DNA of 64,000 nt from Candidatus Latescibacterota bacterium (GCA_965217865.1 CBDCJO010000002.1:5120001-5184000); one strand, 5' to 3'. Counted from the first letter of the stretch, positions 1,212-62,364 are shown. Translations and numbers: made by a program. The notes: generated by a model not told the origin, from the letters alone.

Positions 1212-1389
1212 ACTCAATCACCAAAAGAAAAGTGTAAAATAGAAGTTGAAAATTTTCCCTCTCCAGGGATCTTATGGGGATATGGGGACGGGTTGGTGGT
1301 TGGTGGTTGGGGGCGGGTAAGGGATAAAACGGTTTCCAAGAACTCGATTCTAAAAGGACATGCCTGTTAAAAGGTATGTCCTTCTCTTT

Positions 1390-1509
1390 TCCTGGCACCG
1401 ACCGCACCTAACCTTTCTCCCTCAACATATTGGATAACAGACGCAAATTGGGCAGGATATCGTCAATAATTAAAAGATCGTCCAGCAGCTCTTGATTGGT
1501 CGGGCTCAT
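1390..1509 (-). pseudogene. Response-regulator receiver N-terminal remnant
   Basis: Manual translation from ATG 1509: MSPTNQELLDDLLIIDDILPNLRLLSNMLREKG*VRSV; TAG at 1410-1408; rest missing, next to the IS1595. Confidence 0.7.
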
Positions 1510-1562
1510 CAAGCGCCCTTCTCCTTTTGCACCACATATGACAGCCTGCCCGCCGTCTGGTG

Positions 1563-3407
1563 TTATCCCCGATCGGTGAGTGCCATCATCTTATCAAACC
1601 GAAATTCGTCAAGCAACGTCCGAAATCCTTCCGCCACGGCATGGTGTTCTGCTTCGATCTCATCGATCAAATCGGAAACCCGTTCTAAATCTGCCTGGCT
1701 GGCCTCTTTGTGCAGCTTTGCTATCCATTCCGGAGGCAATGCCAGCAGAGCCTCCGGCGTCAACGCCTCCTGCAATGTAGCCGCATCCCGTTCCACGTCC
1801 TCCTCCTCATAAATAAAAGCGACACCCAGGTGTTCCGCCATCACATCGAACACCTCTGCCTCCCGAAACGGCTTCGGCACAAATCCGTCGCACCCCAACG
1901 CGAGGATCCGTTTTCGATCCTCCTCAAAGGCACTCGCCGTCAGCGCAATCACCGCCGTTTCCCGTCCCTTTTCCTGCGCCTTGATCCTCTGTGTGGCTTC
2001 ATACCCGTCCATCACCGGCATCCGCATGTCCATCCAGACCAGGTGTGGCTTCCATTCCTGCCAAACCTCGATCCCTTCCTGTCCGTTTACGGCCTCTCGA
2101 ACCTCAAACCCCAGCGGTCTCAGCAAATTTACCATCAACATCCGGTTCTCCAACTGGTCTTCCACCACCAGAATGCGATACGTGGGCTGATCGGGCGCCA
2201 GCCCCACCACCTTTCGGGTCGGTCCTTCCGTTTTCACCTCGGCTGCATCCACAGGTACAGCCGGAATATGGAACTTGAATATCGACCCCTTGTCCACAAA
2301 GCTGCTCACCGCAATTTCACCACCCATCAACTGCACGAACTGCTTGCTAATCGGCAGGCCCAGGCCGGTGCCCTCCTGGGTTCCCCGGCCGGAGGCCGTC
2401 TACGCAAACGCCTCGAAAAGCATCTCCACCTCATCCAGCGCAATGCCCATCCCCGTATCTTCTACTTCAAACACCAGCAAAACTTCCGGTCCTGCCTTCT
2501 TTCCAGAGTCAACCTCAGACACGCGTTCCCCACCTGCCCGGAGTGTCACCCCGCCCTCCCTGGTAAACTTAATCGCATTGCTCAACAAATTCATCAGCAC
2601 CTGCCGCAACTTTCCCCCGTCCGCCCGCACATATCGCGGCACTTCCGGCACACGTTCAAAAACCAGACCCAACCCCTTATCTATTGCACGCAACTTGAAC
2701 ATCTCCTCCAGCCCATCCAGAAGCCAGTATAGATCAAAACTCTCCTCGTTCAACACCGTCTGACCCGCCTCAATCTTGGACATCTCCAGCACATCGTTAA
2801 TCAGCCCCAGCAAATGCTCGCCGCTCCTGCCAATCACCCGTAAGTTTTCCCGCTGCTGATCGGCCAGTCCCTTATCCCGGTCCATCAACTGGCTGAATCC
2901 CAGAATCGCGTTCAGGGGCGTGCGCAGCTCGTGGCTCATGTTGGCGAGAAAAGCGCTCTTGGCTCGGTTCGCTTGCCCCGCGGCCTCCGCGGCTGCTTCG
3001 GCCTCCTGCCGCTCCGTCTGTGTCCGCTTCCGTTCCGTGATGTCCCGTATCGAAGCCGTGTAGAATCGTTCGCCTTCCACCACCAGAGATGTGAAGCGAA
3101 GCTCCAGTGGAAAGACCTCTCCGTCCTTTCGAAGACCTTCGAGTTCCAGGTATTTTCCGGATGTCCGAAGATCCTCTGTTGATACGGCCCTCGAAAACCC
3201 GGCGTGGTGACGAGCCCGGTATTTCTCAGGCATTAAGGCCTCAAGCGTCATCCCATAAAGATCATCTGGCTGATACCCGAAGATTCTCTCAGCTTCTTGA
3301 TTGACCAGCCGGATCACTTGCGAAGTATCCACTGTGATGATCGCATCTCCAACCGTGTTAAGAATCGCTTCGATGTGGGCAGAATTCCCAGAAAGACTCT
3401 TTGGCAT
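1563..3407 (-). pseudogene. PAS-HisKA-HATPase-REC hybrid histidine kinase with one in-frame TAG at 2402-2400
   Basis: FLANMSHELRTPLN and NLLSNAIKFT, then FEAFA*TASGRGTQEGTGLGLPISKQFVQLMGG in one frame, then receiver (VWMDMRMPVMDG, KPF). Confidence 0.9.
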
Positions 3408-4085
3408 TGAAGAACCAATCTAATGAAGTCCGTATGAAATTCATCGTTCATATATAACCGAATAATCGGCATTTTATGGAAATTTTATGCGATAGTCAAT
3501 ATAGAAAAAACAGGCCGGATTTCTGTGAAGAGAGTCGGCGGTTTTGGTTGAAGGTTTTGATGCGGCCCTCTACCAGCATAGAGGAGCCAATCGGCTCGGA
3601 TGCAAGGTGCAGTCGAAAACCGGCCTTTTGGACGCCCGATTGTACACAAATATGGACACTCGGCCAGGCTCTAGTTTTTTTACTGCGGTGAAAAAGTGTG
3701 ACAATGTTTGACATTTCGAAAATCTAAATGACGTAAATTATGATCAGGGGCGACATCGGGCCGACGCGGGGGCCAAAGGGATCGACGTGACCGGGTTCGC
3801 CGTGGAGGGCGGTCCGGAGATCAGCTTGTCGGTTTCCACCCTGTCGTTGGAGACCATCAAATCGGCGGGGCAGAAAGGCCGAAAATGCGGCGACGTGAGA
3901 ACGGTCGTTGATCCGATTCGTATTAATATAACGAACAAAATAATTTTCAGTTCCCCCCTTCCGCCACTCCCCCATTTCCGGATTCCGAGCATTAGACCGG
4001 TCGGCCGCTAAAAACCCAATTTGAGCTCCATCGACAGGCTTTCGCGCGGACGCTAAGATCGCACGAATCGAGCTGGAGGAGTCCA

Positions 4086-4484
4086 TGCACCGCGCACCAT
4101 CTGGACACAAACAAAGGAACGCTGGAGATCTTCCAGAATATCTCCTCGTTACCCCCGGACTTCGAAGGTGGCAACACCGCTCACATCGAGCTCCATCCCA
4201 ATGGCAAATGGATCTACGCCTCCAACCGCGGCCACGACAGCATTGTTGGCTTCAACATCACAGAGGATGGATCACTCAACCCGTTCGGTCACTTCTCCGT
4301 TCCGGCCAGTCCCAGATCATTCAATATCGATCCGACCGGGACTTACCTGTACTGCGCCGGAGAACAGGCGGATTCGATGAACGCCTATCGCGTCGATCCC
4401 TCCAACGGTCATCTGACGCAGTTCGACCGCTATGCGGTAGGGAAGTCACCCTTCTGGGTGATGGTGGTGAATCTGGGGAGTTAA
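4086..4484 (+). pseudogene. 6-phosphogluconolactonase/lactonase-family beta-propeller, C-terminal fragment without a start
   Basis: Manual translation: AHIELHPNGKWIYASNRGHDSI..PRSFNIDPTGTYLYCAGE..GKSPFWV*; not in the ORF track. Confidence 0.85.
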
Positions 4485-4662
4485 CGGGACAACGGAAGAA
4501 GTATGGGAAACGCGGGGTATTCCTCTCCCGTAAGACGGGAGAGGGTGGATTGCCCATGATGGGCAATCCGGGTGAGGGCCAGACAGCGCTTCGGCTTGCC
4601 ACCCTAACTGCGGTAATCGTTCCGCTCCGCCCGCATCGAATTGAGTTAACGGAGCATTCCTG

Positions 4663-4807
4663 ATGAAAAACGTAAAAATCGTCGGTCGGGATCGGAAGCG
4701 CCAGTTTTGGCCGCAAGACCCTCGGAGACATACTATCCCGACCCGAACTTTCCGGCAGCACGCTGTGTCTCGTGGACATTCGGCCTGAAGCGCTGTTGGA
4801 TTCGTAG
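4663..4807 (+). pseudogene. Glycoside hydrolase family 4 N-terminal remnant, frameshifted
   Basis: GGAG RBS, MKNVKIV then shifted frame VGIGSASFGRKTLGDILSRPELSGSTLCLVDIRPEAL, resembling the GH4 Rossmann start. Confidence 0.65.
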
Positions 4808-4937
4808 AAGCTGCGGCAACGTGGAAGGATTTGTGAGCGATCGCGAGTTGTCCTCATGTGCGCAAGCTGCCGTTCGAGACCGATGGGGACACATTCGTCC
4901 CGATCGCGCTCAAGGCGCCCTTCCTGGGTTTTGAACG

Positions 4938-5945: not shown

Positions 5946-5977
5946 CATCGTCAGACGCAGGACTTATGGAGAAACGA

Positions 5978-6817
5978 ATGGATCCAGCCAGAGTCAAAGC
6001 GCTACGTGAACAGCTCATCAAAGACGGATACTGCCACGTTCCCAGCGTGGCGCCTCTCGACCTCACCGAAGAGATTCGTCGAACAGCCGACGCGGTTGCC
6101 GACGAACTGCCCGATGAGCTAAAGGAGCGGCACCGCCATCAGGGCTCACTTATCAGCGTCTACGATCACGAAGAGATGCTGCCCATCATAATGCTCCCGG
6201 CCGCACTCGGCGTCCTCCGCGATCTGGGGTACCCCAGCCCGAGGTTCTACAGCGGGTTCATCATCAGCAAACCGCCCGAAGTCGCGCCGCCCCTGTTCTG
6301 GCACCAGGACGGCATCATCTGGGACCAGCCCATGAGCTACACCGACACGCCCCATCAGTTCTTCCTGATGTACTACCTGATCGACACGAACCGACAGAAC
6401 GGGTGCCTGCGCGTCATCCCCGGGTCGCATCTCAACCGGCACCGCCTGCACGGGCTCCCTCCCGCACACACGGACGAAATACAGAAAGCCGACGAACACC
6501 ATCCCGCCCTTCAGAAGGATCCCGACGAGATCGACTTGCCCGTCAAGGCAGGCGATCTTGTGATCGGAGACGCCCGCCTGCTGCATTCTGCGCATCCCAA
6601 CCGCTCGAAACAACGCCGTACGGTCATCACGCTCTGGTTCTGCCCCACCTTCGACGACATGCCTGAGAACATCCAGGCTTTCTACAGTCGTGAAAGGGAG
6701 AAACCCCCCCACTGGAGCGATGAAGGCTGGGAGACGCTCGCATCCCTCCGCACATCCTATTCCGGCAACGCCCAACCCTCCGAAAGCAATCGGATTCCCG
6801 ATGCGCGCCTCGCGTGA
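5978..6817 (+). CDS. Phytanoyl-CoA dioxygenase (PhyH)-family Fe(II)/2OG dioxygenase
   Basis: WHQD, NGCLRVIPGSH, LHSAHPNRS..RR; GGAG RBS before ATG 5978. Confidence 0.9.
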   Translation: MDPARVKALREQLIKDGYCHVPSVAPLDLTEEIRRTADAVADELPDELKERHRHQGSLISVYDHEEMLPIIMLPAALGVLRDLGYPSPRFYSGFIISKPPEVAPPLFWHQDGIIWDQPMSYTDTPHQFFLMYYLIDTNRQNGCLRVIPGSHLNRHRLHGLPPAHTDEIQKADEHHPALQKDPDEIDLPVKAGDLVIGDARLLHSAHPNRSKQRRTVITLWFCPTFDDMPENIQAFYSREREKPPHWSDEGWETLASLRTSYSGNAQPSESNRIPDARLA

Positions 6818-6824
6818 TCCTTCT

Positions 6825-6995
6825 TTATCGTTGCCTCGTAGGCGACGAACTTTGAAAAGAGCCGAAATCGCCAAGCATCTCGCCGTGATCGATGGAGAAG
6901 ATGATATAGGTGTTGGAGCGAAGGTCGCGGTCACCCAGCACCTTCAGAATGTCGCCGATCTGATAGTCGATCTGCTCGATATGGGCACAGTACTG
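6825..6995 (-). pseudogene. Sulfatase internal fragment
   Basis: YCAHIEQIDYQIGDILKVL..NTYIIFSIDHGEMLGDFG, the sulfatase SDHG region; no flanking domains. Confidence 0.75.
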
Positions 6996-7118
6996 TCTCT
7001 GAGTCCGGAGGAGAAGGAACCGGAATTGAAGATGAAGCGGAGAATGCATCACAAAAAAGATGCGACCGGGTGGGATGAGGGGCGACGGGTGTCGGGGACG
7101 GGATTAAGAGCAGGAAAA

Positions 7119-7270
7119 CGGCAGACGGCAAACGTGAGACGGGAGAAGCAGCAGCAGTGGCAGGACAGGCAGGGGCCAGTGGCCGGAGGTCAGGGGTCGG
7201 GAGAGTCAAAACCGGCTCCTGAGCCCCTTAATCGCCCTGGATTACAGAAGTCAGGGGCCAGAAGTCAGGA
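7119..7270. repeat. Composite 6/7-mer tandem tract, dispersed family
   Basis: 7183-7215 matches 52972-53004 at 30/33; related blocks at 8672-8722, 54361-54450 and 58018-58070. Confidence 0.75.
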
Positions 7271-7317
7271 TAAGATCAAACCATAAAGATTGTTAGACCT
7301 GGTGGTCATCAAGCGGA

Positions 7318-7350
7318 AGGGCATGCCCGAGAAGGCATGCCCTTTTGTTT
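7318..7350. terminator. Intrinsic terminator-like hairpin
   Basis: AGGGCATGCC-cgagaa-GGCATGCCCT followed by TTTGTTTT. Confidence 0.6.
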
Positions 7351-7422
7351 TGCAATTATCGAAAGGGTTGTTACCAAGCCCAATGATAAGGGTTGCAGGC
7401 CGTGCTCGCTGCGAAAGGACCC

Positions 7423-8577
7423 TCAGCCTGCCCGGACTCGCCAGTCCGGCGAATCGCAGCCTAGAATCATCTCCTCCGTTATCTGCCCGTAGGCCAGCCT
7501 GGCAACGGCTTTCTCCCCTTCAAGACCGGTGCTGCTGTCCTGAATCGTGTTCCCCACCCACGTATACGCCGGGCCGGTCTTCATCGTATACACGATGTGG
7601 ATGACCCCTTCCGGGTCTTGAGTGGCTGAGGGATAGCAGATGAACCGGTCCCTGTCGAGCACGAGTTCCGCGCAGAAGGTGAGCCCGTCGTCTTCGGAAA
7701 GGGCGGCCGTGAGGTAGCTCCGCCCGACGTACTGGTCGGCCGGAGGTCTGTTCTTGTGTCCGGCCCGCGAGGCGAAAGTGGCATTGTTCAGAAGAAGGAC
7801 CCTTCCCGAGGCGAGCTTGAGCAGGAAAGGCTTGGTACCGGGGTTGGGGATTCCGGTCTCCCGAATGTCGTACCAGGACCCTCCCTCATCGTCTGATAAC
7901 CCCTCGAAGAGCCTCCCTCCGGTCGTGCGGTAAAGCGCCCAGAGCTTGCCGTCATCACGTTGAATGATGGTAGCCTCATCCAGGCCGCCGGGCACCTCGT
8001 CCGTTGTCCCGGGGTTCCGGTTCACCCAGGTCCTTCCATGGTCGACCGACGTGCGGGCATATTGCACAGGTCCGTCTTGAACGGGAGCCACCCACCTTCC
8101 GCTGGAGAGCACGATAGGCGGATTCGCCCCCCAGTGGGACCACGGTCTCACATCGCGGATCTTTATTTCATCTCCGTCCGCAGACACAATACCCTCGAAT
8201 ATCCGATCACCGCGAATTCGCTGCCGAAAGCCGGGGCAGTCATACTCTGCCCACTGCAGCCACACTTTTCCGTCGGGACGGGTCCACAGCACCGGACCAC
8301 CAGCCGCCCACCCGTCCTCAGGATCGATGACACACTCCAAGGCCGACCAGGAATGGCCGTTGTCGAAGGAGCGAGCCATTGCGACAACATTGTCGGGCTC
8401 GGGCTCGGCCCTGGGCCCACCCAGACAAGCAACGAGGAGCGTCCCTTTCGGGCTTCGCGCAATGGTCCCGACGTGAACGAACAGGCCCCACTTCTCCTCC
8501 AGGACCAGTCCCTTGGCCTCTCGGAATGGCGTATTTCGAAACAACTGCGTGTCGATCACGAAAAAGTCCTTCCACAA
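7423..8577 (-). CDS. BNR/Asp-box repeat sialidase-like beta-propeller
   Basis: Asp boxes SFDNGHSW, SVDHGRTW, SDDEGGSW, SEDDGLTF and YPSA; start uncertain (TTG next to a heptamer tract). Confidence 0.85.
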   Translation of the reverse strand: MWKDFFVIDTQLFRNTPFREAKGLVLEEKWGLFVHVGTIARSPKGTLLVACLGGPRAEPEPDNVVAMARSFDNGHSWSALECVIDPEDGWAAGGPVLWTRPDGKVWLQWAEYDCPGFRQRIRGDRIFEGIVSADGDEIKIRDVRPWSHWGANPPIVLSSGRWVAPVQDGPVQYARTSVDHGRTWVNRNPGTTDEVPGGLDEATIIQRDDGKLWALYRTTGGRLFEGLSDDEGGSWYDIRETGIPNPGTKPFLLKLASGRVLLLNNATFASRAGHKNRPPADQYVGRSYLTAALSEDDGLTFCAELVLDRDRFICYPSATQDPEGVIHIVYTMKTGPAYTWVGNTIQDSSTGLEGEKAVARLAYGQITEEMILGCDSPDWRVRAG

Positions 8578-8580
8578 TTC

Positions 8581-8825
8581 ATTGAATCTGAATATCGGAA
8601 AATTGAAGGTTTGAATAACTCAGGACTTTCTTGTGGACTTATTGATCTCTTTGATTTTCAATCTTCAATTTCCCCTGACCTCTGCCACTGCTACTGCTTC
8701 TCCCGTCTCACGTCTCACGGCTGAGTTGAATTTAGGTCTTCTTCTGACTCCTGTCTTCTGTATTCTCTATTCCGGTGGGTGTGGGCGGAAGGGTCTTCGT
8801 TTCACGTTTCACATCTCACGTTTGC
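8581..8825. repeat. Cluster of heptamer tandem tracts between the BNR gene and acoX
   Basis: ATTGAA(G/T) copies and their inverse TTCAATC, TCTCACG x2, TTCTGTA/TTCTCTA, TTTCACG-type x3. Confidence 0.75.
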
Positions 8826-9873
8826 CGACTTTCCCGACGAACACGCCTGCTCGTGCGGCGAGATCAATCGCCTTGCGTGCGTCTATCACCCTGGGGCCGT
8901 TGACATTAAGCCGCAATCGGACAGTGGCGCCTGGCCGGAGTTCGATTTCGCGCTCGCCATCGAGGGCAAGCACACAAGGCTTTTGGTGGCTGACTACGAC
9001 CTCCTCGCACGGCGCCAGCAGTCGGTACTCAGATACGCTTACCTGTCGGATGAGGCCAGGGGCAATGGGTGCCAGCACTTGCTGGCCGCCCGGCTCCAGG
9101 CTAAGATACAGCCCCTGTCCTCGACTGAGCGAAGTCGAAGGATCGGACGAGTGATTCCCGTCAAGAAAGTGGGCACCAATGGATGACAGTCCGATGTTGC
9201 CAGCTTCGGCGTGGGTCAAGATGACTTCCTTGATTTTTGACACATCCCAGATTGCCCGAGAGGCGATAAATCGCTCGTCATACACGGCTGCATCTACCAG
9301 AGCGATGTCGTCAGGCGCATCGGCTGCCCGGATGGCTGCATCGCTGCCGCCCTCAGCGGACTTGCCATAAAGGACGTCCAAGCGCGGCACGACCCCCACG
9401 GCCTCGTCGGCCAGCCCGCGCGCGACCAGCCCTGCGGCCATCCCGGCAATGGTGCCTTCGATCATCGTGGGAAAAACGTTGTTGGTGCCGGTGGAGATCG
9501 GCATGAGGGGGACGTCACCGCTGGACTTGGCCACAGCGCGGTTGGTGCCGTCACCACCCAGCGTGGCGATACAGCCGACGCGGTCCGCAGCCATGTGTCC
9601 CGCAGCACGCGTGGAGTCCTGCTGGGTGAATGTTGTAGGCAAGGACAGGACCGGGGCATCGAGCCCGAGCTGCAGCCCGTCAAGCGCCTTACGGCCGATG
9701 CCAAACGATTCGGGCATGATCAAAACGCGGTCCACGCCCACGGCATCCAGCCCCAGCAACACCCGACGGACGATGTTGACTTTTTCGTCGTTGTCGAACA
9801 CCGTGCCGTGGGCCACCAGTCGGCGGATATCTTTGCCCGATGCCGGGTTCGCGATGATGCCAACGGTGATCAT
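8809..9873 (-). CDS. acoX: ATP-NAD kinase-family acetoin catabolism protein
   Basis: GIIANPASGKDIRRLV, LGGDGTNR, STGTNNVFP, LALDGERE; located in the aco cluster. Confidence 0.88.
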   Translation of the reverse strand: MITVGIIANPASGKDIRRLVAHGTVFDNDEKVNIVRRVLLGLDAVGVDRVLIMPESFGIGRKALDGLQLGLDAPVLSLPTTFTQQDSTRAAGHMAADRVGCIATLGGDGTNRAVAKSSGDVPLMPISTGTNNVFPTMIEGTIAGMAAGLVARGLADEAVGVVPRLDVLYGKSAEGGSDAAIRAADAPDDIALVDAAVYDERFIASRAIWDVSKIKEVILTHAEAGNIGLSSIGAHFLDGNHSSDPSTSLSRGQGLYLSLEPGGQQVLAPIAPGLIRQVSVSEYRLLAPCEEVVVSHQKPCVLALDGEREIELRPGATVRLRLNVNGPRVIDARKAIDLAARAGVFVGKVGKREM

Positions 9874-12279: not shown

Positions 12280-13296
12280 TTACCTCCTTATCTGGACCGC
12301 TGGCGTCTGGAACGGCCACAGCTCGGATTCAGGGAAGCCGACATAAACATCGGTCAGGGTTTCCGCCGGGTCGGGCTGGGGGCTCTCTTGGGCAAAACGG
12401 CAAGCCTCTTCTATGGCGTCCTTCGTCTCGAGGTCGATGGCATCCAGCTCGCTCTGGCTCAGTAGGCCCTGCTGCAGCACGGTTTTGCGGAAGAGATGGA
12501 TACAGTCCCTGGAGAGAAGGAATTCCTCTTCTTTTTCGGGCCGGTAGAGATCGGTATCGCCTTCGAAGTGACCATATTTGCGGTACGTCTGGGCCTCGAT
12601 GAAAGCCGGGCCTTCGCCACCCCGCGCGCGATCCACAGCCGCCCGCGTAGCTTCGTACACGGCGAACACATCCTGACCATCAAGGGCCATACCGGGCATG
12701 CCAAAACCACCCGCCCGCGCAGCGATATCGTTGCCTGATACAGAGTAAGCGGCGGCGGTCGTCTGGGCATACCGGTTGTTCTCGCAAACGAAGATGACGG
12801 GTAACTTCCAGACGCCGGCCAGGTTCATCGCCTCCAGGGTAGTACCCTGGTTGGAGGCACCGTCGCCGAAGAAGCAAACTGTCACCTGGTCTGTGCTTTT
12901 CACCTTGGCCGTAAGACCGGAACCACAGGCCAGAGGCGGCCCGCCACCGACGATACCGTTGGCGCCGAGCATCCCTTTCGACATATCGGCGATGTGCATT
13001 GAGCCGCCCTTACCTTTGCAGGCGCCGGTGGCCTTACCACAGATCTCAGCCACCATCAACTTGACATCTACGCCTTTGGCAATGCAATGGCCGTGGCCCC
13101 GGTGGGTGCTGGTGATGAAGTCATCATCCGTGAGATTAGCGCACACCCCCACTGCGACAGCTTCTTCACCGGCGTACAGGTGGACGAATCCGGGAATCTT
13201 TCCTGCAGCGAAATCCACATGAATGCGTTCCTCGAACTCCCGGATTAAACGCATGCGCTCGTACATCCAGAGTAGCTTGTCTTTCCCGATTTCCAT
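12280..13296 (-). CDS. acoA: Acetoin dehydrogenase-type E1 alpha subunit (C-terminal part of the 1442-aa ORF)
   Basis: GFVHLYAGEEA, STHRGHGH, GKGGSMH, TPP motif GDGASNQG..ENN; own GGAGGG RBS before ATG 13296. Confidence 0.92.
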   Translation of the reverse strand: MEIGKDKLLWMYERMRLIREFEERIHVDFAAGKIPGFVHLYAGEEAVAVGVCANLTDDDFITSTHRGHGHCIAKGVDVKLMVAEICGKATGACKGKGGSMHIADMSKGMLGANGIVGGGPPLACGSGLTAKVKSTDQVTVCFFGDGASNQGTTLEAMNLAGVWKLPVIFVCENNRYAQTTAAAYSVSGNDIAARAGGFGMPGMALDGQDVFAVYEATRAAVDRARGGEGPAFIEAQTYRKYGHFEGDTDLYRPEKEEEFLLSRDCIHLFRKTVLQQGLLSQSELDAIDLETKDAIEEACRFAQESPQPDPAETLTDVYVGFPESELWPFQTPAVQIRR

Positions 13297-16200
13297 TCGC
13301 AATCCCTCCCTGTGTCTATTTAACTTGACAAAAGTCGAGAAATCATTTAGGATTGTTTCGTTGAGTGCCTTTCTCCTTGCCCGTATTTCTTGACCCCTTT
13401 TCCACCTGGTGAGATCCCGGATGGCGGTGACCCTGACGGTCCGTCCCCGGTAGGGGACAGCCCTTCCTGTAACCTCGATGGGAAAAGTAGATCCGTCCTT
13501 TCTCAGGCCGACGACCTCATAGGGCCTTTTAGATCCGGATTGAATATTCTTGTAGATTGTTTCGTGGAATTCCGCGGGCGTAAGGTCCGCGGCCGTCTTC
13601 CCGATCATCTCCGAAGGCTCGTAACCAAACATCGATGCCAGCGATTGATTTGCATCCAGGATTTTACCCTCTTCGTGGAGGACGATACCCTCGAAGGCGG
13701 CCTCGGAGAGCCCTCGAAACCGCGCCTCGCTCTCTCGCATTGCCCGGCCCCTCCGGACGGCACGGGAACCCTGCCACACGATCAGCATCCCGGCGAGACA
13801 AAGCGCCAGGACCCCGAAGATCCGGTCATACGGCAGACGCACCTGGAGCGTTACAGTCGCGGGCTGTTCCGAGGGGACCAGGTCCCGGTCCACGGCCATG
13901 ACCTCGAACGTGTAGCTCCCTCTCGGAAGGTCCTGGTACTCCACCCTCCGGGTGTTTGTCGAGATCCAGCCCTCATCGTAGCCTTTCAGACGATATCGGA
14001 AGACCATCGCTTCCGCCCGTGTCTTGAAGCTCATTCCCGAAAATTCAAATGCGACAAGGTCCACAGTCGACGGGATCTCGATACCGGACACGGCCTCATA
14101 TCGTTTATCTGCAACCACGGCTTCGATGGAAACCCCCGGAGGAAACTTCGGGGGTTCACGATAGCGCGTGACACCCCTGACGGTTCCGATCCAGAGATCG
14201 CCCTCCCGGTCCTGGGTGATCGACGTGACCTGATTGCCGGCCAAACCATCCCGGTGGTCAATCGTCTGAAAGTTGACCCCATCGTATCGCGTTACGCCGC
14301 CGCCATAAGTGCCGAACAATAGATGGCCCCGTCGGTCCTGATAGATTGCCCGCACCACATTTTCGCCCAGGCCATCATCTTTTGTGATGGTCGTAAATCC
14401 TTTGCCGTCGAATCGACTCACGCCCCCACCCTCCGTGCCGAACCAGAGGATCCCCGCGCGATCTTCGAACATCGAAAAGACCACGTTGTGCGCCAATCCG
14501 TCTTCTGTGGTAAATGTCGTGAATCCCGGAGATTCCGGGCTTGGAGAGGGATCGAACCGGCTCACCCCGTCTCCCTGGGTGGCAAACCAGAGATATCCCT
14601 TCCGGTCCTGAAGAATGGACCACACTTTATAAGCAAGCCCATCCTGAATGTCGTATGTGGTCCACACCGGTCCGGATTTTCCTGAAGGATCGTATCGGCT
14701 CACCCCACCGCCAAAGGTCCCGAACCAGTATACGCCATCCCGATCCTGAAAAATGGACCATACCTCATCGTGGGCCAGGCCGTCTCCGGTTGAAAATGTC
14801 GTCCATGTCCGGCCATCATAGCGGGACACCCCTCCGCCCTTGGTCCCAAACCAGATGTGGCCCTCTCTATCCTGAAATACGGTGCGTACCTGAAGATTTC
14901 CGAGGCCGTCTTCCGGCGTGTAAGTCGCAAAGGTTCCATCACGATGATACCGGGTCGCCCCACCGTATGTGCCGAACCAGAGATCCCCGTGCCCATCTTC
15001 CAGGACCGAGAGCACCACATCGTGTCCGATCCCTTCCTCTGAGGTGAAAGAAATGAGGCTCTGGTCATAGCGGCTCACACCTCCGCCGGTACCGAACCAG
15101 AGATCCCCTTCTCGATCCTGAAATATCGACCCCACCCAGTTGCCCGCCAACCCGTCATCAGTGGTGATGGTTGTAAATCGTTTGAGACGGGGGTCAGCAG
15201 GCTTCTGTCCAGAGCTTATGGAGGGATCATACTTGCTCACACCTCCGCCCTGGCTTCCAAACCAGATATAGCCATCCCTATCCTGAAATATCGTGGATAC
15301 GCTATTGCTTCCAAGACCTTCTCGAGTTGTGAAGGTGATAAAGCGGTAGAAATTGTCGCTGCCGGTGGTTGAAGCCCCAACCTTCATCCTGTTCATGGGC
15401 TTTGATCCCAGGCCATACCGGGTTATCCCGCCATCTACGGTCCCAATCCAGAAATATCCTTCCCGATCCTGAAATACCGCCTGAACCAGATTGGCACCAA
15501 GGCCATCCTGGGTGGTGAATGTTGTCCAGGCTCTTTCAGCTCTTGCCAATGGATCATAAAGGCTCATCCCTGTCCCGGTAGCGAACCAGAAATGGCCCGC
15601 TCGATCCTGAACCATCGAAGTAACCTCCTCCCCGGCAAGACCATCCTGTGTACTAAACGTGATCCAGGCCTGTCCATCGAAACGGCTCACACCAGAGGTT
15701 GTCCCCACCCATAAAAGTCCGGATTGATCCAGGAACCAGGTCAAGGCGAGAATACCCTCCGGTTCGTCTTTAAAGTTGAAGACACTGGTGCGAAAAGTAT
15801 TTCCGCCTATTTTGAAGTCCATTGCGGGATGGGGTTCTGAAACTCCAACCCTTTTGTCCGATGGGGAGGGATCGAACCGGTTGAAACCGATTTCACTGCC
15901 CAACCATAGATTTCCCCCCGCATCTTGAAGAATCGTGCGGACTCTATTGGACAGCAGGCCGTTTTTCGTGGTGTAATTTGTCCAACGGAGCCCATCATAC
16001 CTGCTCAGACCATTTGACGTGCCAAACCAGATGTGTCCCTCTCGATCCTGTACAATCCCGTTCACGTTCACATTTACAAGCCCATCTGTCACATCGTAGG
16101 TGCGCCATTGACCTCTTCCGTGTTCAGCTGATATGGATTTTCCCGGACCAGAAGACACGATTTTCCCAGGCCCCGCAGGAGCGGTATATATACGGAATTC

Positions 16201-16608
16201 GTGTTGTATAAGGCCGGTTGGGAACGCAATTCCAAAGGCCGCACCCAGGCCGCGAAGGGCGGTGACCCATTCCGAATCGTTCTGTAAGGCTCTGTTTTTC
16301 TCCGCGATCTCGGATGGCGCGCTCACCTCAAACAGGCGGCTGAAGATGCCGTCGGGCCCGGGTCTCGGACGTTGAGTGGATTCCTTCAAGCCGTGTTTCG
16401 ACAAGATAGGCACGAGCTTCTCCGCATAGGAGGTCTCGAACTCTGCAATTCGATCGGGAGGGACCCAGAAAGAGAGGCGTGAAAGGGTGGGGGAGGGAGG
16501 GGAGGTGCGCGAAGCGGAGATACGATCGGAGGACCAGCCGTCGGAGAAGAAGAGGGAAATGCAAAATAAAAAGTGAAAAGTGAAAATTGTAAATTTGAGA
16601 AAAGTCAA
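13297..16608 (-). CDS. Membrane sensor: signal peptide, Reg_prop beta-propellers, Y_Y_Y domain, TM and PAS; no kinase domain, reads in frame into acoA
   Basis: Many DGL..V.SI.QDREG.LWFGT.GGVSRYD repeats; FRYRLKGYD..YTFEV; TM IFGVLALCLAGMLIVW; PAS RKDGSTFPIEV..RDLT. Confidence 0.85.
13325..13353 (+). promoter_or_regulatory. Sigma70-like promoter pointing antisense to the sensor gene
   Basis: TTGACA-N17-TAGGAT. Confidence 0.5.
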
Positions 16609-16657
16609 AATTGAGAACCCTCTGGTTTATTAATACTGATCAGTTTCCATCTGGGTT

Positions 16658-17915: not shown

Positions 17916-17977
17916 TAGAGCTCCTTGAAAGCAGAGGATCGTCGTGAAATAAATTGAAGATTGAAGATTGAATATTT

Positions 17978-19066
17978 AGGATCTTCCTGGTTCTTGATGG
18001 AAAACGAGGTTTTGTGAGGCGACATATCAGCGGGCCAACGGTCCGCGATCCGGATTAACCCACACATATTGTTCATCGTAGGACTAGATGAATCAGGATG
18101 CGGTCAGGGATTGGGGGATGTGAAATTATCGCGGCCCTTCAGGCCGCACAACGATATGGCTTTCCAAGGACCCAGGGCGCTGCCCTGGGTTGAGGGATAA
18201 CGCGCCGTTGGCGCTGAAAGAAGATCCTGACTTTAATCTCGGCTTTTCGATATGGAGATCTTCCTTGTTTTTTGTGCAACCGAAGTTCTGTAAGGCGACG
18301 CATCAGCGGGCCAACGGCCCGTGATTCCTTGGCCCAGCCCAACGGGCTGGGTTTGAATGTGAGCGAATCCAGCGGGCCAACGGTCCGCGATCCGGATTAA
18401 CCCACACATATTGTTCATCGTAGGGCTAGATGAATCAGGTTGGGGGATGTGAAATTATCGCGGCCCTTCAGGCCGCACGACGATATTGCTTTCCAAGGGA
18501 CCCAGGGCGGCTCGCCTGGGTTGAGGGATAACGCGCCGTTGGCGCTGAAAGAAGATCCTGACTTTAATCTCGGCTTTTCGATATGGAGATCTTCCTGGTT
18601 TTTTGTGCAACCGAAGTTCTGTAAGGCGACGCATCAGCGGGCCAACGGCCCGTGATTCCTTTGCCCAGTCCAACGGGCTGAGATTGAATGTGAGCGAATC
18701 CAGCGGGCCAACGGTCCGCGATCCGGATTAACCCACACATATTGTTCATCGTAGGGCTAGATGAATCAGGTTGGGGGATGTGAAATTATCGCGGCCCTTC
18801 AGGCCGCACGACGATATGGCTTTCCAAGGACCCAGGGCGCTGCCCTGGGTTGAGGGATAACGCGCCGTTGGCGCTGAAAGAAGATCCTGACTTTAATCTC
18901 GGCTTTTCGATATGGAGATCTTCCTTGTTTTTGTGCAACCGAAGTTCTGTAAGGCGACGCATCAGCGGGCCAACGGCCCGTGATTCCTTGGCCCAGCCCA
19001 ACGGGCTGGGTTTGAATGTGAGCGAATCCAGCGGGCCAACGGTCCGCGATCCGGATTAACCCACAC
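17978..19066. repeat. Tandem array of ~330-bp units built from REP-like hairpin modules
   Basis: TTGGGGGATG anchors at 18111, 18440 and 18771 (spacings 329 and 331); diverged partial copy from about 17978. Confidence 0.95.
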
Positions 19067-19225
19067 ACAGAAGCCCCTGAATTTTGTCTCGCCTTCTCGA
19101 TTTAGCTCGAAGGCCCGGTGTCAATCGCGAAGACAGGGTCCACTATATTCCACGGAAAGCCATATTTAAGATTGGAAGCGCATGAGAGGCAGGTAAACGC
19201 AAATCGGAAAGCGAAAACCGGAATA

Positions 19226-20466
19226 TCAAGATGAACTGTCTCGCTTGGTTGCTTGACGCTCGTAAACCAGTCTGCCTGACTTAAAGACCGATACTGGCTC
19301 CCTTAAGGCGTTTAGATCTTCAAGGGGATTTTCCTTCAATAAGGTGAGATCCGCACGATACCCCGGTTTGACCTCTCCCAGCTCAGACAGGCTCATGTAC
19401 TCTGCTCCAAGGCTGGTCAAGGTTCTCAAGGCCTCCTCGTTGGAAAGGCCGGCCCTGGTGTAAGCAAGGATCTCGTCCACGAGGGAGTCGAAGGGTGTGT
19501 CGGTCGCCCCGCAATCTGTTCCTCCTATGATCTTCATCCCGAGCCTATAGAAGTGTCCGGTGTTCGTAAGACGCCCCTCCAGCCGATCGACTGCCGCCAA
19601 ATCATTCGGATTGTGAGACGCGCCTGATTTGCGATACCGCGCAGCGGTTTGAAGCCCGCTGTAAGCGGTGGGGCTGACGACGATTCCGCGATCCCGAATG
19701 CGCAGGCTGATATCTTCGTCATAACGATACCGGCCGGGAGGCTCCACAAAATTGACGTGCTCGATCATGTCCAGGCCGGCTTCGATCGCTCGCTCGATGC
19801 TCTCCGTTGCGTGACAGTGGGCGGTGATCTGCACGCTGTTCGCGTGGGCGACCTCTGTGGCCGTTTTCATCAGTTCCAGGGGGAGGTCCGCTTCGTAGGG
19901 GATTGTTCCGGGTGTCAGCCCACCCCCCGAAGCCATCAGCTTCACGAACCCGGCGCCCTGTTCCAGGTGCCCTTCGCTCAGACGGCGGACCTCTTCTACT
20001 GTGCTGACCTCACCGCCCATAAAGTGAAGGTGACCCTTGGGACGCATGAGGGCGTGGCCGCAGCTGATGATGTGGGGGGCGGCCCCAGGACTTCCCCCCG
20101 TTCCACCTGGCGTTGAAAGGGAAACATCAGGCGAGCGGGTGCGGCGCAGTCCCGCATCGTGGTGATCCCGGCCTGGATCGCGATGCGGGCGTTATTCTTC
20201 GCGCATTCCATTTTCGCCCCGTCGTCGCTCTCGATGTAGCTGGTCCTGGGCGCGCCGCTTGCGTCCAGAAAGAAATGCGCGTGGCAGTCGATCAGGCCCG
20301 GGCAGATGTAGAGTCCCGCGGCGTCGATCGTTTGGCCGGAGCGTCCCGGTTGGGATTCTGTTACCGAGTCGATTCGGTCGCCCTTTAAAACCACGTCGCG
20401 GTTCTGGTGGATAAGGCCACGGGCAACGTCTACCACGTTGGCGTTGTGGATATGGAGAGGGTTCAT
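19226..20466 (-). pseudogene. Amidohydrolase-family metalloenzyme frameshifted at a C6 run (20074-20079)
   Basis: PGLIDCHAH in the upstream frame; HIISCGHAL..VKLMASGG, AHCH, IEH and GTDCG in the downstream frame. Confidence 0.85.
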
Positions 20467-20526
20467 AAGGGAAAATGAAAAGTGCAAAGTACAAAGTGAA
20501 AAGTGTAAAATGAAATCAAGGTAGTA

Positions 20527-50825: not shown

Positions 50826-51600
50826 CTAACTTGATTCGTTTAAGGCGTTAATCAGTCGTGATGCGACCAGGTGGTCATCGGAGCGCTTTAGGGTGGAAAC
50901 ACATTTATAAACATAGTTGCTACCAGAGCTGAATTCGATCGGAGGGTTCTGATTTCGACAGGCAGTCACGACGTTCACGTGAGTTGATTTCCGATCCGCG
51001 TCGAAAAGAATGCGGAGGCCAAAGTCGTCACCCCACCTTCCATGCTCTACAACTTCGAAGTCTAAATAAGGAAAGACAGAGAGTTTTTCACGAAGTTCCT
51101 TGATCCGGGACAGGAAATCTCTTTCAACGGATCGCTTATCCCGCTGAAGTAGCTCACGGATGGCGACATAAATACCCACAAACTCCTCTTTTCCTACTTT
51201 ACAGCTTAAACCTATGCCACCGTTCTGCCGGTCGTTGAGCTCACACGCTGCAATCAGGTCTTTTCGTCCGACTACGATTCCCGTAGATGCTGGTCCACAT
51301 ACAGCCTTGCCGCCGCTGAAAATTTCCAAATCTACTCCCATCTCTTGAGTGAAATACCAAAAATTCTCTTTGGGAGGAACCTCATATGCCGCGTCAACTA
51401 TGACAGGAATACCTCGCGCCCGGCCGACAGCAACCGCTATGTCCAAAGGAATCATTAGCTCTCTCGCAAATGAGCACATAAGGATGGCTGCCGTCCGGTC
51501 GGTTATTGCCCGCTCAAGTTCTGTTTCCATGTCCTTTCGATTGGCACCGCCAATTACGCGTACAGAAACACCCGTAGGGCGAATGGATACACGCTCATCC
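50826..51600 (-). pseudogene. SelA/DgaE-like PLP enzyme lacking its N-terminus, in frame with the upstream Ig-like fragment
   Basis: LERAITDRTAAI, PVIVDAA, FSGGKAVCGP..G...GRKDLI, KVGKEE. Confidence 0.75.
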
Positions 51601-52504
51601 CATCCGAGGGTTGTAACCGCCAGGTCACCGTCGCAGGCATCATTGGCAGTTGCGCCGGGATCGGTGTAAGTACCCCCGCACTCCACCTTCAGGGTGTCAC
51701 CGATCATTGTCACCACCGGATCTGTGGTGTCCTCGATCGTCACTTCCACCGAATCTGTGGCCGTGGCGATCCCATCGCTCACAATCAAATCGATCGTATG
51801 GGTTCCAAGCGGGAGGGTTATTGTAGGGCTTACCCCGGTGGCGGATCCTCCGCCTTCTGAAAAAGGACCGGTCCAGTTATAAGACAGGGGAGAGGGGCCG
51901 TTGTCCGGATCACTCGATCCGGAGCCGTCCATGGTAACGGAAGTCCCTGTGGGGGATATGCATTCCACCGCGTCGTCCCCGGTCTGGTCCGGTCCGGCGT
52001 CGGCTGATCGTCCCACCAAGTCGAGACGTAGAGATTGCCGTTGAAGACCTGGTTACGGTCAAACCGAATGCCCTCAGACCCTCTACCCAGGCTAACGAAA
52101 ACTGAGATTGGACCGTTTGGTTCATCGAGTCTTCTCACCGGGGCTGCGACGGTACTGTTGACGATAAACATACTGTTGTCAAAACCGAACTCGAGGTAGC
52201 CGAAATTTGGTGACAGTCCCGACGCAACTAATGTTCCCTTGTCGCCAGCCGGAAGACCTTCAGGAGGTACGCGGTAGATTGATCCGCCGGTCAGAAAATA
52301 ATAAACATCAGTCCCAAAATCGCCACCCTGTCCCACCGAAACGTCAGTAATATCTGCCCCAACGCCGGATACAATCGGCTGGATCTCCCAGTCCCCCGCC
52401 GCGATAACAGAAGGCTGTGTCACGGCCGACAAGGGGGCAAACAGGATCGAGACCAGCGCGATAGCTGACAACCCAAACCACTTGGATGTTGATAAGCTCA
52501 TCAT
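51601..52504 (-). pseudogene. Secreted protein remnant: signal peptide, propeller start, frameshift near 52010, PKD and DUF5011-like Ig domains
   Basis: GGAGG RBS; signal peptide; ADAGPDQT..DGSGSSDPD..LSYNW; VECGGTYTDPGATANDACDGDL. Confidence 0.7.
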
Positions 52505-52888: not shown

Positions 52889-53076
52889 TTGGTACAATTA
52901 CGCAATTTTAATAAAAAAATAACCTAATCTGGATAGGGTATATATACCTATTGAAAGACGGGGGCCAGAGGCCAGAGGTCAGGAGTCGGGATAGTCAAAA
53001 CCGGTGCCCAAAAGTAAGGAGCAAGAGGTGTAAGGGTCAGGTACTTACCCTTACACCTGGCTTCCGGCCCCTATTT

Positions 53077-54341: not shown

Positions 54342-54360
54342 GGGTTTTCCTCATAAGAAG

Positions 54361-54506
54361 CCGTGAGACGTGAAACGTCAAACGTGAAACGGAAAAGCAG
54401 TAGCAAGTGGCAGTGGCAGGAAAAGCAGGGGTCAGAGGACCGAGGTCAGGGGTGGGAATGCGACCCTCCGCTTCACGCTTCACGCTTCACGAGATACGCT
54501 TCACGG
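54361..54506. repeat. Heptamer/hexamer tandem tracts filling the cupin-ferritin intergenic region
   Basis: CGTGA(G/A)A-type x4, CAGTGG-type hexamers, GCTTCAC x3+1. Confidence 0.85.
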
Positions 54507-54508
54507 TT

Positions 54509-57247: not shown

Positions 57248-58072
57248 CTATATCAAACGCAGCATAGCCAGGGTTGAAGCCTTCCGTTCGTCGAACCGGA
57301 CCAATCCGACTTCACGGGCAATTCGAAAGGCCTCTTCCAACTCATCTGTCGTAATGTGACGATTGATCTCCTGGTATTTCTCCCCGTTCACCTTTCCTGC
57401 CGGATAGTATTGCGCCATCAGATTGATATAGGTGTCCGGTGAAATATTTTCGGACAAAAATCGTACGATTTCCCGGGTTTCTTCCAGGCCGTCCGGCATG
57501 ACCAGGTGACGAACAAGCACTCCCCGTCTGGCCATCCCGTGCGAATCGAACCTCAGGTCACCCACCTGGCGATGCATTTCCCTGATGGCCGCCCGGGCTG
57601 CGGATGGGTATTTCGGGGACTTGACATATCTTTTGGCCTGATCCTCATGCCAGTACTTGAAATCCGGCATGTAGACGTCCACGATGCCTTCCAAATGGTA
57701 AAGGCTGTCGAGCGAGTCAAACGCGCTGGTGTTGTAAACGATGGGGAGATTAAGCCCGCTTTTTATGGCAAAGGGAAGGGCTTCGAGGATTTGGGGAACC
57801 ACGTGCTCGGGAGTAACCAAGTTGATGTTATGACAGCCCATCTCCTGAAGTTCAAGCATCATCTCTGCCAATTGTTCAGGTCCGACTTCCGTTCCAGCTT
57901 CCTGCTGGCTGATATCGTAGTTTTGACAGAAAACACATCGCAGGTTGCACCAGGCGAAGAAAATCGTGCCGCTGCCGTTCCAACCACGCAGGCAATCCTC
58001 CTCCCCGAAGTCGGAGGCCAGAGTCGGGGAAAAACGGTAGCAGTGGCAGTTGGCAGTGGCAGGAAAAAGCAT
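57248..58072 (-). pseudogene. PflX-like radical SAM protein whose N-terminus is replaced by a repeat tract
   Basis: FGEEDCL..GSGTIFF..CNLRCVFCQN, DVYMPDFKY, RHLVMP; upstream codons (FPATANCHCYRF) come from the CCACTG repeat family. Confidence 0.75.
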
Positions 58073-58093
58073 AGGCCTTCCACCACTGGAATT

Positions 58094-59281: not shown

Positions 59282-59285
59282 AAAT

Positions 59286-59348
59286 GAAGCAGAATACAGA
59301 ATATAGAATACAGAATGAAGTCAGAATCAAAGTCAGACTTCAGAATCA
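59286..59348. repeat. AGAATA(C/T) heptamer tract between the two transporter genes
   Basis: CAGAATACAGAATATAGAATACAGAAT. Confidence 0.85.
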
Positions 59349-59350
59349 GT

Positions 59351-60547: not shown

Positions 60548-60668
60548 ATCAAATTCTTTCTACAAGAATTTTGGAATGTGTGCGTCCGTGCAGGACAGGA
60601 GGTTAGCAAAGAGGCGAAGCCGGTTGTCTGGCTTCGCCTCCGTGTGTTGAATGGTATTCGGGAAAAGT

Positions 60669-61100
60669 TTAGAAAGGGAGATCGTCGTCTTCTTTGCTTC
60701 CGGACGGTTCGAGTGCGGGAGACGTTACCTCGGATCTTCCTTCCCAGTCTTCTCGTGGGACGTCCCGCCCGTCGAGCATTTGCATATCACGGGCCACGAT
60801 TTCCGTGGTATAGCGTTTGTTCCCATCCTGTCCGTCCCACGATCTGGTCTGAAGACGGCCTTCGATATAAATTTTACTCCCCTTCTTCAGGTACTCGTTG
60901 CAGATTTCTGCCAGCTTACCCCATACCACGATCCGGTGCCACTCGGTTTTCTCCTGGCGTTCTCCCTTTCCGTCCACCCAACTTTCGTTGGTTGCAAGGT
61001 TGAAGTTGGTCACGGAGGAACCCGAAGGGGTGTACTTTAGCTCGGGATCTCCTCCGAGGTTGCCGATTAGGATGACCTTGTTAATTCCGCGACGACTCAT
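60669..61100 (-). CDS. ssb: Single-stranded DNA-binding protein
   Basis: [33 protein letters not shown] tail. Confidence 0.98.
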
Positions 61101-61174
61101 AAGATAACTCCTTATAAATAAAAGTTATATATAAACTATATTCGCCCGGACTTCAGCCAGAGCGCACCTGATAT

Positions 61175-61203
61175 AGTATACATATTTGCCCCTAATAAGT
61201 CAA
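61175..61203 (-). promoter_or_regulatory. Sigma70 promoter of ssb
   Basis: TTGACT-N17-TATACT. Confidence 0.75.
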
Positions 61204-61422
61204 GCGGAAAATAAATGATTATCATATTGTAATTAATTGACTTAACGAATATCCGTGATTAATTACGATGCGTAGATGCGTTTTTTGAGGATCGCACCGC
61301 GATCCTGAAGAAAATCAAAGACCAATATCGCTGGCATGCCAAGGATGTCAGGTGAATTATATGAAAAGGTGACGGGATTAGATGGGAGGGACGCCGGCCT
61401 CGGCGTCCACCACGAGGAACTT

Positions 61423-61646
61423 ATTGCAAACTGAAAATTGTAAAATGGAAAATGCAAATTTTAGGGTAGACAGGATACGCGACGGGTCTCCGATCCCCGA
61501 ACCACGAACCACGGATTTTTGAGGCCGCGAGCCCTCCCGGAAAAGGTCGATTCTAGACATGTCGCAGGTGGTCTTGTTTGCTCCCGCCGAAAACGCCGCC
61601 GAGGCCATGGAAATGGAAAATGAAAAATGCAAAATGGAAATTGCAA
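61423..61646. repeat. Paired AAAATG(G/C/A) heptamer tracts with an internal ACCACGA tract
   Basis: Tracts at 61423-61460, 61495-61514 and 61607-61646. Confidence 0.75.
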
Positions 61647-61739
61647 GGTCGCGCTCAAAAGCAATGGTTCAGGACCTGAGAATACAGTTTGACTTGATGA
61701 GGTTTTGCCTTATTGACACGACTCTTTGGGGGGGTTAAG

Positions 61740-62114
61740 TTATGATGGGTCGATCTCCGGGGAATTTTCAAGCAGGTTTGAAATCAGGGCGTCGAAGGCC
61801 TCCTTCCCCTGGGTTTCTCCACCGTGGAGAGACGCCAACTTTTCAAGGATTTCGGCCTTGAGGCGTGGCATAATATCCTCTGCTTTTTGAGTGATAACGG
61901 GATCGTCGAGGAGCCTGAAAGCATCGGTTGCATTAAGCTGGCTGGGATGCGTGTGGGCTCCCCCGAGGAGGACGCAGACCTGATATATCAGATCGAGGAA
62001 TTGTGTGTAGGTAGTGTTCGAGGCGAGATTCAAAAATTTATCTTCAGCAACGGGATCGTAATAGTTATCCTTGATGGCTACGATCAGCCGTTTCGTTTCA
62101 TAATCCAGGGACAT
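61740..62114 (-). CDS. Hypothetical helical protein
   Basis: ORF from ATG 62114, preceded directly by an ATTGAAG tract at 62118-62149. Confidence 0.65.
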   Translation of the reverse strand: MSLDYETKRLIVAIKDNYYDPVAEDKFLNLASNTTYTQFLDLIYQVCVLLGGAHTHPSQLNATDAFRLLDDPVITQKAEDIMPRLKAEILEKLASLHGGETQGKEAFDALISNLLENSPEIDPS

Positions 62115-62364
62115 AATATTGAAGATTGAAGATCGGAAGATTGAAGATTTCCCCTCAACACCCCACAAGAATACAGAATACAGGAGAAATCAAGTCATTC
62201 AGTCCACAGTCAGGAACCATTAGAAGATTGAATATTGACGATTGGCCGGAGTAAAAGGTTTTTGAGGATTTAAATCATTCCCGATAAAAATAATCAAGAT
62301 GATTAAGGATGACAAGTCCGAAAATTTTGGATGGGGGCGTCACAGGGTTTGGTTGACTCTATAA

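Follow-up and report, generated by a model that had tools for sequence, protein, structure and literature searches.

The tandem tracts of period 7 that stand at gene junctions across a 64,000-nucleotide stretch of a Candidatus Latescibacterota genome (GCA_965217865.1, CBDCJO010000002.1:5120001-5184000; "the window" denotes this whole stretch) belong to a mosaic of dispersed repeat modules that extends through the whole genome. Its main organising features, namely modular stacks of co-oriented arms and a strand polarity linked to replication, could not be seen by an earlier note, which a model had drawn from the letters of the window. In the genome (G000; 6.43 Mb, 2 contigs, 96% complete, listed contamination 9.3%), tracts were located by Tandem Repeats Finder and direct reading and counted with a period-specific detector. 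Genes were called with our own hexamer-score caller and boundary counts carry some error; the caller sometimes ends an open reading frame (ORF) inside a tract, and the overlap counts of tracts with stops are therefore inflated.

All 13 stretches that the earlier note had cited as period-7 tracts at gene junctions were found at their positions. The short ones show 63-100% identity at lag 7, and the long composites at 8581-8670, 54361-54506, 59286-59348 and 61423-61646 score 36-57% over their whole length because they hold several tracts and linkers. Within the window 14 period-7 segments were detected and not one in any of 10 block shuffles; periods 5, 6, 8, 9, 10 and 11 yielded 0-1 segments. 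Genome-wide there are 632 period-7 segments, 559 of them intergenic, and the same other periods gave 7, 72, 31, 23, 14 and 14; the intergenic comparison with three shuffles (528 against 1, 1 and 9) likewise bears out the excess of period 7 that had been proposed. The proposed bias towards gene boundaries held for stops and failed for starts: a stop is no more than 10 nt away for 129 of the 558 intergenic tracts (null 71.6 +/- 7.2; the highest of 1000 draws was 100), and 59 of the 558 lie within 20 nt of a start (null 77.4 +/- 7.1), a slight depletion which indicates that the tracts mostly end before the ribosome-binding site. The 5' end of an unpaired stack adjoins its neighbour gene at a median of 7 nt past the stop (n = 230), and where the nearest arm after a stop is purine-rich it falls no farther than 20 nt away in 281 of 419 cases, compared with 24 of 181 for pyrimidine arms. 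Altogether the genome holds 687 clusters, 189 of which contain at least two families, over a total of about 48 kb; an Rfam search of the window returned no match.

The tracts belong to about eight unit families, which range from tens of tracts to about 200 and are designated A (ATTGAAG), B (ATGGAAA/ATGCAAA), C (CAGAATA), D (CAGAGGT), E (CGTGAAA), F (CGTGATT), G (CCATAGA) and H (the hexamer GCAGTG). Of the 33 common units, 20 are connected through single substitutions (shuffles gave 5.5 on average and 19 at most), and the earlier statement that the period is conserved and the sequence is not thus stands for the period and gives way in part for the sequence, the GGTTGGT tract at 1291 being a singleton beside the recurrent families. 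Each arm has one purine-rich strand (mean 71%), and most units lack three consecutive G. Inverted pairs of the same family place the purine arm first in 54 instances versus 2, and adjacent arms of unlike families are co-oriented in 227 and inverted in 7, their order not being fixed. Some direct and inverted pairs therefore exist, as had been noted, but the majority of neighbours form co-oriented stacks of unlike families instead. Arms of family F grow into long near-perfect AATCACG arrays of 200 nt and more (e.g. C2:4645269-4645675), and the first 0.4 Mb of contig C2 (1-400000) carries only two tract clusters.

Stretches of the window match dozens of other loci across non-periodic linkers. The A module is a hairpin of about 95 nt with ATTGAAK arms, a conserved loop and one sharp end; the C module is a CAGAATA tract between a fixed leader and a fixed trailer; and the F module is a hairpin by alignment. 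Copies number 59-70 for A, 40-58 for C and 19 for F (70, 58 and 19 by profile search), with a mean identity of 81-84% and 91-95% to the nearest neighbour. Non-periodic repeated DNA is commoner on the 3' side of the tracts (178 vs 63 of 579), and the A core varies independently of its upstream stack (rho 0.07). Local hopping was rejected as the mode of spread, the nearest module copies being no closer than random pairs. Direct repeats of 6 nt were found at the ends of 88 of 687 clusters, within the null (mean 79, maximum 92), the cluster ends being fuzzy enough that short target duplications could escape this test.

The orientation of the arms was scored against the G-over-C skew, for which third codon positions alone were used. 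Of 1109 arms scored, 79 ambiguous ones being set aside, 871 have their purine strand on the G-rich strand, as do 349 of 404 gaps with unpaired arms (113 paired gaps set aside), and gene strand versus skew stands at 2220:2058. Where both flanking genes lie on the opposite strand, 73 of 92 gaps still follow the G-rich strand. Intact modules are polarised likewise, with 56:9 for A, 43:10 for C and 17:2 for F; all four four-helix-bundle cassettes described below share the polarity. Agreement extends to 55 of 59 bins of 100 kb, and tract strand correlates with coding-only skew at rho 0.75 (87 bins of 50 kb). Base composition was ruled out as the source by flat purine controls, the non-tract intergenic purine fraction being 50.2% and purine-rich 28-mers dividing 1808:1674 between the strands, and an origin through loss of one arm is unlikely because intact hairpins are polarised too. 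A REP-like family (REP, repetitive extragenic palindrome) of 331 bp shows the same polarity (29:5).

At the putative origin, where a perfect match to the parS motif lies 3.5 kb from dnaA, the skew crosses from negative to positive and the strand of the arms changes together with it: all 10 arms to the left are on the minus strand and all 9 to the right on the plus strand. This joint turn supports the view that the G-rich strand is the leading strand, as does the orientation of rplB, and skew and arm strand flip together again near 2.29 Mb. Neither a dif site nor a DnaA-box cluster was found by motif search. Over the whole genome the skew changes sign more than 10 times and the tracts follow, switches which we attribute to many inversions or assembly joins.

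The tracts and composites of the window, by position and strand, are as follows.
1291-1313, plus: GGTTGGT tract, a singleton outside the dispersed families; one unit (7 nt) shorter in strain run X7.
7119-7270, plus: arms of families E (CGTGAGA), H (GCAGTG) and D (CAGAGGT) stacked in one orientation with a linker and followed by a CAGAAGT-type tract; the plus strand is the purine strand.
8560-8827, minus: composite of an E tract, the C module, E, H, D and the A hairpin module (order on minus); 162 blast matches.
8578-8672, minus: A module, a hairpin; the cited stretch 8581-8670 is this hairpin with two short arms.
8720-8797, minus: C module.
16557-16612, plus: solo arm of family B (AAAAGTG/AAAATGC).
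17953-17976, plus: A-family arm at the head of a REP-like array (18028-19067); 8 nt shorter in run X7.
20467-20515, plus: solo B-family arm, filling the gap from an SNF2 helicase stop to an amidohydrolase start (both genes on minus).
52959-52991, plus: D-family arm with a linker, absent from the earlier list.
54342-54508, minus: ferritin-like/cupin junction of 167 nt, with inverted E arms around arms of families D and H; its fold has a z of about -4.
59282-59350, plus: C-family arm in the 69-nt junction of two antiporter-like genes.
61345-61700, plus: mosaic upstream of ssb, comprising a non-periodic repeat, a B arm, an inverted F arm, a REP-like piece, a B arm and a B-linked module.
62118-62244, plus: A, C and A arms with linkers between divergent genes.

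The stack at 7119-7270 lies downstream of a PhyH gene (5978-6817) and has 68 blast matches genome-wide; the ORF at 6852-7286 that spans it may be spurious. The composite at 8560-8827 sits between acoX-like (8809-9873) and BNR (7423-8559) genes, and the last codons and the stop codon of acoX come from its E tract. The REP-like array is a 331-bp unit in 3.1 tandem copies of REP-like palindromes (18028-19067) and is dispersed at dozens of genome sites. Among the neighbouring genes, all on the minus strand, an IS1595-family transposase (331-1206) lies 84 nt from the GGTTGGT tract, and the amidohydrolase (19226-20466) is split over two overlapping ORFs, which correspond to the N-terminal and the C-terminal part of a single family. 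A sensor region (regulator propeller, Y_Y_Y, PAS) and a dehydrogenase E1 alpha domain share a single 1377-aa ORF (12280-16413), which is read as an unusual fusion or deletion product; the gene at 50826-52016, in which a PKD-like N-terminus meets a SelA/DgaE-like pyridoxal-phosphate (PLP) domain, is probably a chimeric remnant.

Orthologous junctions were compared in relatives. The ferritin-like/cupin gap measures 167 nt here and 9, 32 and 103 nt, tract-free, in the three syntenic relatives (G001, G038 and G028, two further matches not being syntenic). The antiporter pair carries a C arm here, a B hairpin of about 59 nt in G002 and no tract in G001, indicating independent gains; the G002 hairpin lies just upstream of the ribosome-binding site with no visible duplication. 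The acoX/BNR pairing is not syntenic in any of three relatives' matches. Tract-bearing junctions being short and tract-free in relatives, the tracts are insertions. The earlier note had suggested that they may be footprints or substrates of an insertion/excision or repeat-generating system, perhaps with a small gene between tract pairs: gain of tracts agrees with this, precise excision and target duplication were not observed, and no cargo gene lies at the orthologous junctions in any of the 3 ferritin/cupin relatives or the 2 antiporter genomes of the same family. Searches of 60 relatives for the modules gave three short tract-level matches only, and the module expansion is accordingly lineage-specific; in JGI metagenomes no close relative was confirmed by the antiporter, and the A-module motif was unmatched. 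Strain contigs 97-98% identical to this genome, from runs X7 and X10, show the length differences listed above, and in both runs the stretch 61286-61711 is swapped for 213 different letters; few loci could be compared, as these contigs break at most tracts and cover 7000-8800 and 12300-16500 thinly. Elsewhere, GGGAGAC tracts in G004 (L086, L091) are joined to a GTAG-footed palindrome (505 pattern matches, overlapping), and unlike units are stacked in G030 (L088) as they are here.

A link to genes of the four-helix-bundle family TIGR02436 had been raised in the earlier note, and it is supported. The genome has four such loci, two of them broken and, as the note had also stated, none inside the window; all four carry heptamer or hexamer arms, of families E, G, B and H: those of B and H flank the gene as inverted copies on either side, G hairpins stand at both ends and E arms occur upstream only. 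These arms match 5-66 other loci each. Among 16 four-helix-bundle loci of relatives, 12 have period-7 arms, one has period-8 arms and three have none. In a cargo-blind scan of GTDB, 25 of 32 pairs of inverted ATTGAAK (A) arms 375-405 nt apart enclose a four-helix-bundle gene, that spacing having been chosen to fit the gene. The companion suggestion, a tie to GxxExxY genes, found no instance in this genome. Purine-then-pyrimidine arm pairs 200-1600 nt apart number 26, against 30 in the control orientation, and enclose a single four-helix-bundle remnant, two transposases of insertion sequences and, for the rest, ordinary genes; no further cargo family was recognised in these lists, which were read by eye with no family scan. 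No tract of period 6-8 occurs in C2:2781000-2789500, which holds the sole 16S gene and the following 5.9 kb, the 23S gene not being mapped separately. It is likely that the heptamer arms descend from four-helix-bundle gene cassettes.

Several observations adjoin these cassettes. At C2:3037437-3038884 a transposase gene, ISL3-like by eye, stands between A-hairpin arms. In G001, G035, G012 and G008 (L022, L023, L024 and L026) a four-helix-bundle cassette is nested in a putative DNA methyltransferase gene (label assigned by eye), and in three genomes the host frame stays open across it. At L026 one additional 7-nt unit shifts the frame of the host gene, which suggests phase variation.

The origin that we favour, tentatively and at somewhat below an even chance, is that the arms came from four-helix-bundle cassettes and were multiplied gene-less by copying on exposed lagging-strand template. 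Cassettes, bounded on one side by a purine-rich arm and on the other by the same arm inverted, would have arrived as seeds; the association with arms is observed, and the ancestry is presumed. Gene-less arms and empty hairpins would then have fused with fixed linkers and REP-like pieces into the modules seen today, and new copies of the modules would have entered distant loci as well as stacks already present, always with one orientation and free of target duplication. The most economical mechanism may be template switching primed by the heptamers, or single-strand recombination, at lagging-strand gaps, for which no dedicated enzyme would be needed. Copying of this kind would fix the purine strand on the leading-strand sequence and leave module order free to change, and the joining of unlike modules, co-oriented, duplication-free and in fixed orientation to the fork, is what homology-primed lagging-strand copying would be expected to give. 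Filtering would presumably leave those copies that abut a stop, substitute an in-frame stop of their own or spare the ribosome-binding site. Slippage then shifts the unit number in steps of about 7, as seen at two loci. The tracts are likely to be selfish or neutral passengers and not selected RNA signals.

A bolder form of the proposal, which we consider unlikely, makes the heptamer arms the homology handles of a transposase-free copying of modules at the replication fork. If it were true, a stalled lagging strand would pair through its heptamers with any arm-bearing locus and write a module in fixed polarity beside a gene end; such copying would also shift four-helix-bundle cassettes among operons, rRNA and coding genes across phyla, and the repeats would drive intergenic turnover and inversion in the lineage.

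A number of points weigh against the favoured origin. The lagging-strand step is drawn from orientation, with neither a copying event nor an enzyme seen, and the "leading" strand is itself deduced from G-over-C skew in a heavily rearranged genome; tRNAs (22:26) and the 16S gene, in a weak-skew zone, are uninformative about it. Where transcription and replication conflict, the A module tracks the former more often than the latter (8 vs 3). The 5' and 3' halves of stacks do not differ in age (p = 0.11), giving no direction of stack growth. Parent cassettes are missing from this genome for four families (A, C, D and F), and only family A was scanned for such parentage elsewhere, at the spacing fitted to the gene. 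The listed assembly contamination counts against it as well. By a 20-kb method that gives 177:32 here, polarity was not seen in G004 (49:39 and 13:9) or in Prevotella G066 (24:28) and G065 (24:23), the samples being 40 and 20, 20 and 20 regions of 15-20 kb, respectively, mostly around known tracts, where local skew may be stale in rearranged genomes. Rehm et al. report no leading/lagging preference in Xanthomonas (PMC4692102). Polarity is consequently not general, and lagging-strand copying cannot be the primary mechanism of all heptamer arrays.

The main rival to copying without an enzyme is strand transfer of the HUH type, in which the same seeds and modules would be moved by a single-strand transposase, be it the IS200/IS605 TnpA of this genome or a REP-associated enzyme since lost, a route already suggested for bacterial interspersed mosaic elements (BIMEs); we hold it to be rather unlikely. 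According to PMC3333891, the lagging-strand template is where HUH elements insert, and strand transfer has been put forward as the way in which BIMEs diversify; the lack of detected target duplication, the polarity of the REP-like 331-bp family and the G004 tract joined to a GTAG-footed palindrome all speak for this rival. The genome also harbours 13 near-identical IS200/IS605 TnpA copies, inserted after TTCAT. Yet the IS200 ends are unpolarised (16:13 and 8:4 in two counts), and no REP-associated tyrosine transposase (NF047646) scored above the cut-off in G004 or in this 96% complete genome. No copy of an IS200 end was seen in the modules by inspection, and derivation of the A module from IS200 on account of the shared TTCAT was rejected in the same way; the TTCAT at the A-module end behaves as a target instead, one copy sitting in it (C2:473650), and another copy lies inside a stack. 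The 13 sites are C2:473650, C2:2321228 and 11 others.

Spread or maintenance through RNA appears distinctly unlikely. Here reverse transcriptase would jump templates onto transcript ends, perhaps aided by the four-helix-bundle protein, or the tracts would be retained as stems through which RNase III processes polycistronic mRNA, much as in rRNA intervening sequences. The sense orientation of the A module (50 vs 3 relative to transcription) and the position of purine arms just after stops speak for it, as do the three reverse transcriptases of the genome and the Coxiella intervening sequence (IVS), which RNase III excises and which has heptamers in its 5' region, as outlined in PMC4990558. Against this, 330 of 418 co-directional gaps with arms hold unpaired arms only, and 54 hairpins show no excess of G-U over A-C on the transcript strand (78 vs 89). 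No tract closely flanks the reverse transcriptases, which, like most of the 13 IS200 copies, lack arms of their own, and the polarity keeps to replication in the 73 of 92 gaps whose genes face the opposite way.

Equally, it is improbable that the tracts were born in place by slippage, with selection setting their position and strand, for instance by tolerating purine arrays on one template strand. The unit-number differences of about 7 between strains, the singleton at 1291 and the recurrence of related units in distant phyla are consistent with slippage. It cannot, on the other hand, make non-periodic loops and linkers common to dozens of copies at the identities given above; asymmetric two-arm hairpins and the near-neutral REP-like family are polarised too, and purine-rich DNA outside the repeats is not.

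In a reading along the lines of the earlier note, an active, site-specific system would insert and excise small cargo genes at gene boundaries and the tract pairs would be its footprints or substrates; this is very improbable. In its favour, arm-framed cassettes do exist in this genome and in relatives, and junction content varies among relatives and strains. Against it, two of the four cassettes are broken, the orthologous junctions are free of cargo, the 26 arm pairs show by eye no cargo family beyond the one remnant, and no integron integrase (TIGR02249) scored above the cut-off in the genome.

The repeats matter for the handle that roughly 690 clusters provide: arm orientation keeps step with replication and reverses at the origin, modules are rearranged independently of one another and ends are unduplicated, a combination pointing to single-strand events at the fork or to orientation-dependent selection there. 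The tracts also rewrite gene ends, as at the acoX stop. Their weight is tempered by the polarity being strong here and not seen in the three other genomes tested, and by the repeat class itself having been published already; replication-linked polarity nevertheless suggests a testable clue to the spread of long-unexplained repeats.

Comparable heptamer repeats of cyanobacteria are named short tandemly repeated repetitive (STRR) sequences. Among the titles and abstract openings surveyed, in a library short of most subscription papers, neither heptamer-armed four-helix-bundle cassettes outside rRNA nor replication-polarised heptamer mosaics are described. According to published accounts, heptamer repeats are over-represented in bacteria and have been noted for decades with no mechanism (PMC4692102, PMC4679880), with intergenic heptamer simple sequence repeats (SSRs) in Xanthomonas and Nostoc (Rehm et al. 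2015, PMC4692102), heptanucleotides in Calothrix (as cited there) and TAACTGA repeats in Beggiatoaceae (MacGregor 2015, PMC4679880); for G-rich heptamers Rehm et al. proposed G-quadruplex formation (PMC4692102). The present repeats share with this class, as so described, the period, the intergenic position, the variable unit number, a purine strand near the 5' neighbour just after stops and convergent inverted pairs. They differ in having about eight families in one genome, fused into modules and co-oriented stacks, and in a link to four-helix-bundle cassettes, of which the consulted parts of the Rehm and MacGregor accounts make no mention; the strong replication polarity, against none in Xanthomonas (PMC4692102), is a difference and not an exclusion from the class.

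The four-helix-bundle IVS protein (TIGR02436/PF05635) is described as being of no known function (PMC4990558). As in the S23p IVS of Coxiella 23S rRNA, by the same account, the cassettes here place a four-helix-bundle gene between complementary arms, with heptamers upstream of the start and a unit number that varies between strains (PMC4990558). Unlike rRNA IVSs as there presented, they lie between protein genes and none is in an rRNA operon, and nearly all copies of the repeats are gene-less, most lacking a partner arm and showing no RNA-stem signature.

With REP/BIME systems and their TnpA-REP transposases, as outlined by Ton-Hoang et al. 2012 (PMC3333891) and Quentin et al. 2018 (PMC6006769), the genome shares hundreds of intergenic mosaic repeats with linkers that serve as insertion-sequence targets; HUH strand transfer prefers the lagging-strand template (PMC3333891, PMC6006769), and with no target duplication found here a single-strand mechanism is plausible. 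The building blocks are nonetheless tandem heptamer arms and not palindromes of 20-40 nt with a conserved 5' tetranucleotide (GTAG-footed), the modules join head to tail and not as inverted doublets, no cognate transposase was found and the copies are not locally amplified. Clusters with no target-site duplication above the null differ from MITEs (miniature transposable elements with inverted repeats), and a genome with no integron integrase above the cut-off differs from the carrier of an integron cassette array. Overall, the repeats constitute a variant of the heptamer-repeat class, with a BIME-like organisation that falls short of BIME membership and with ties to cassettes of the IVS type.

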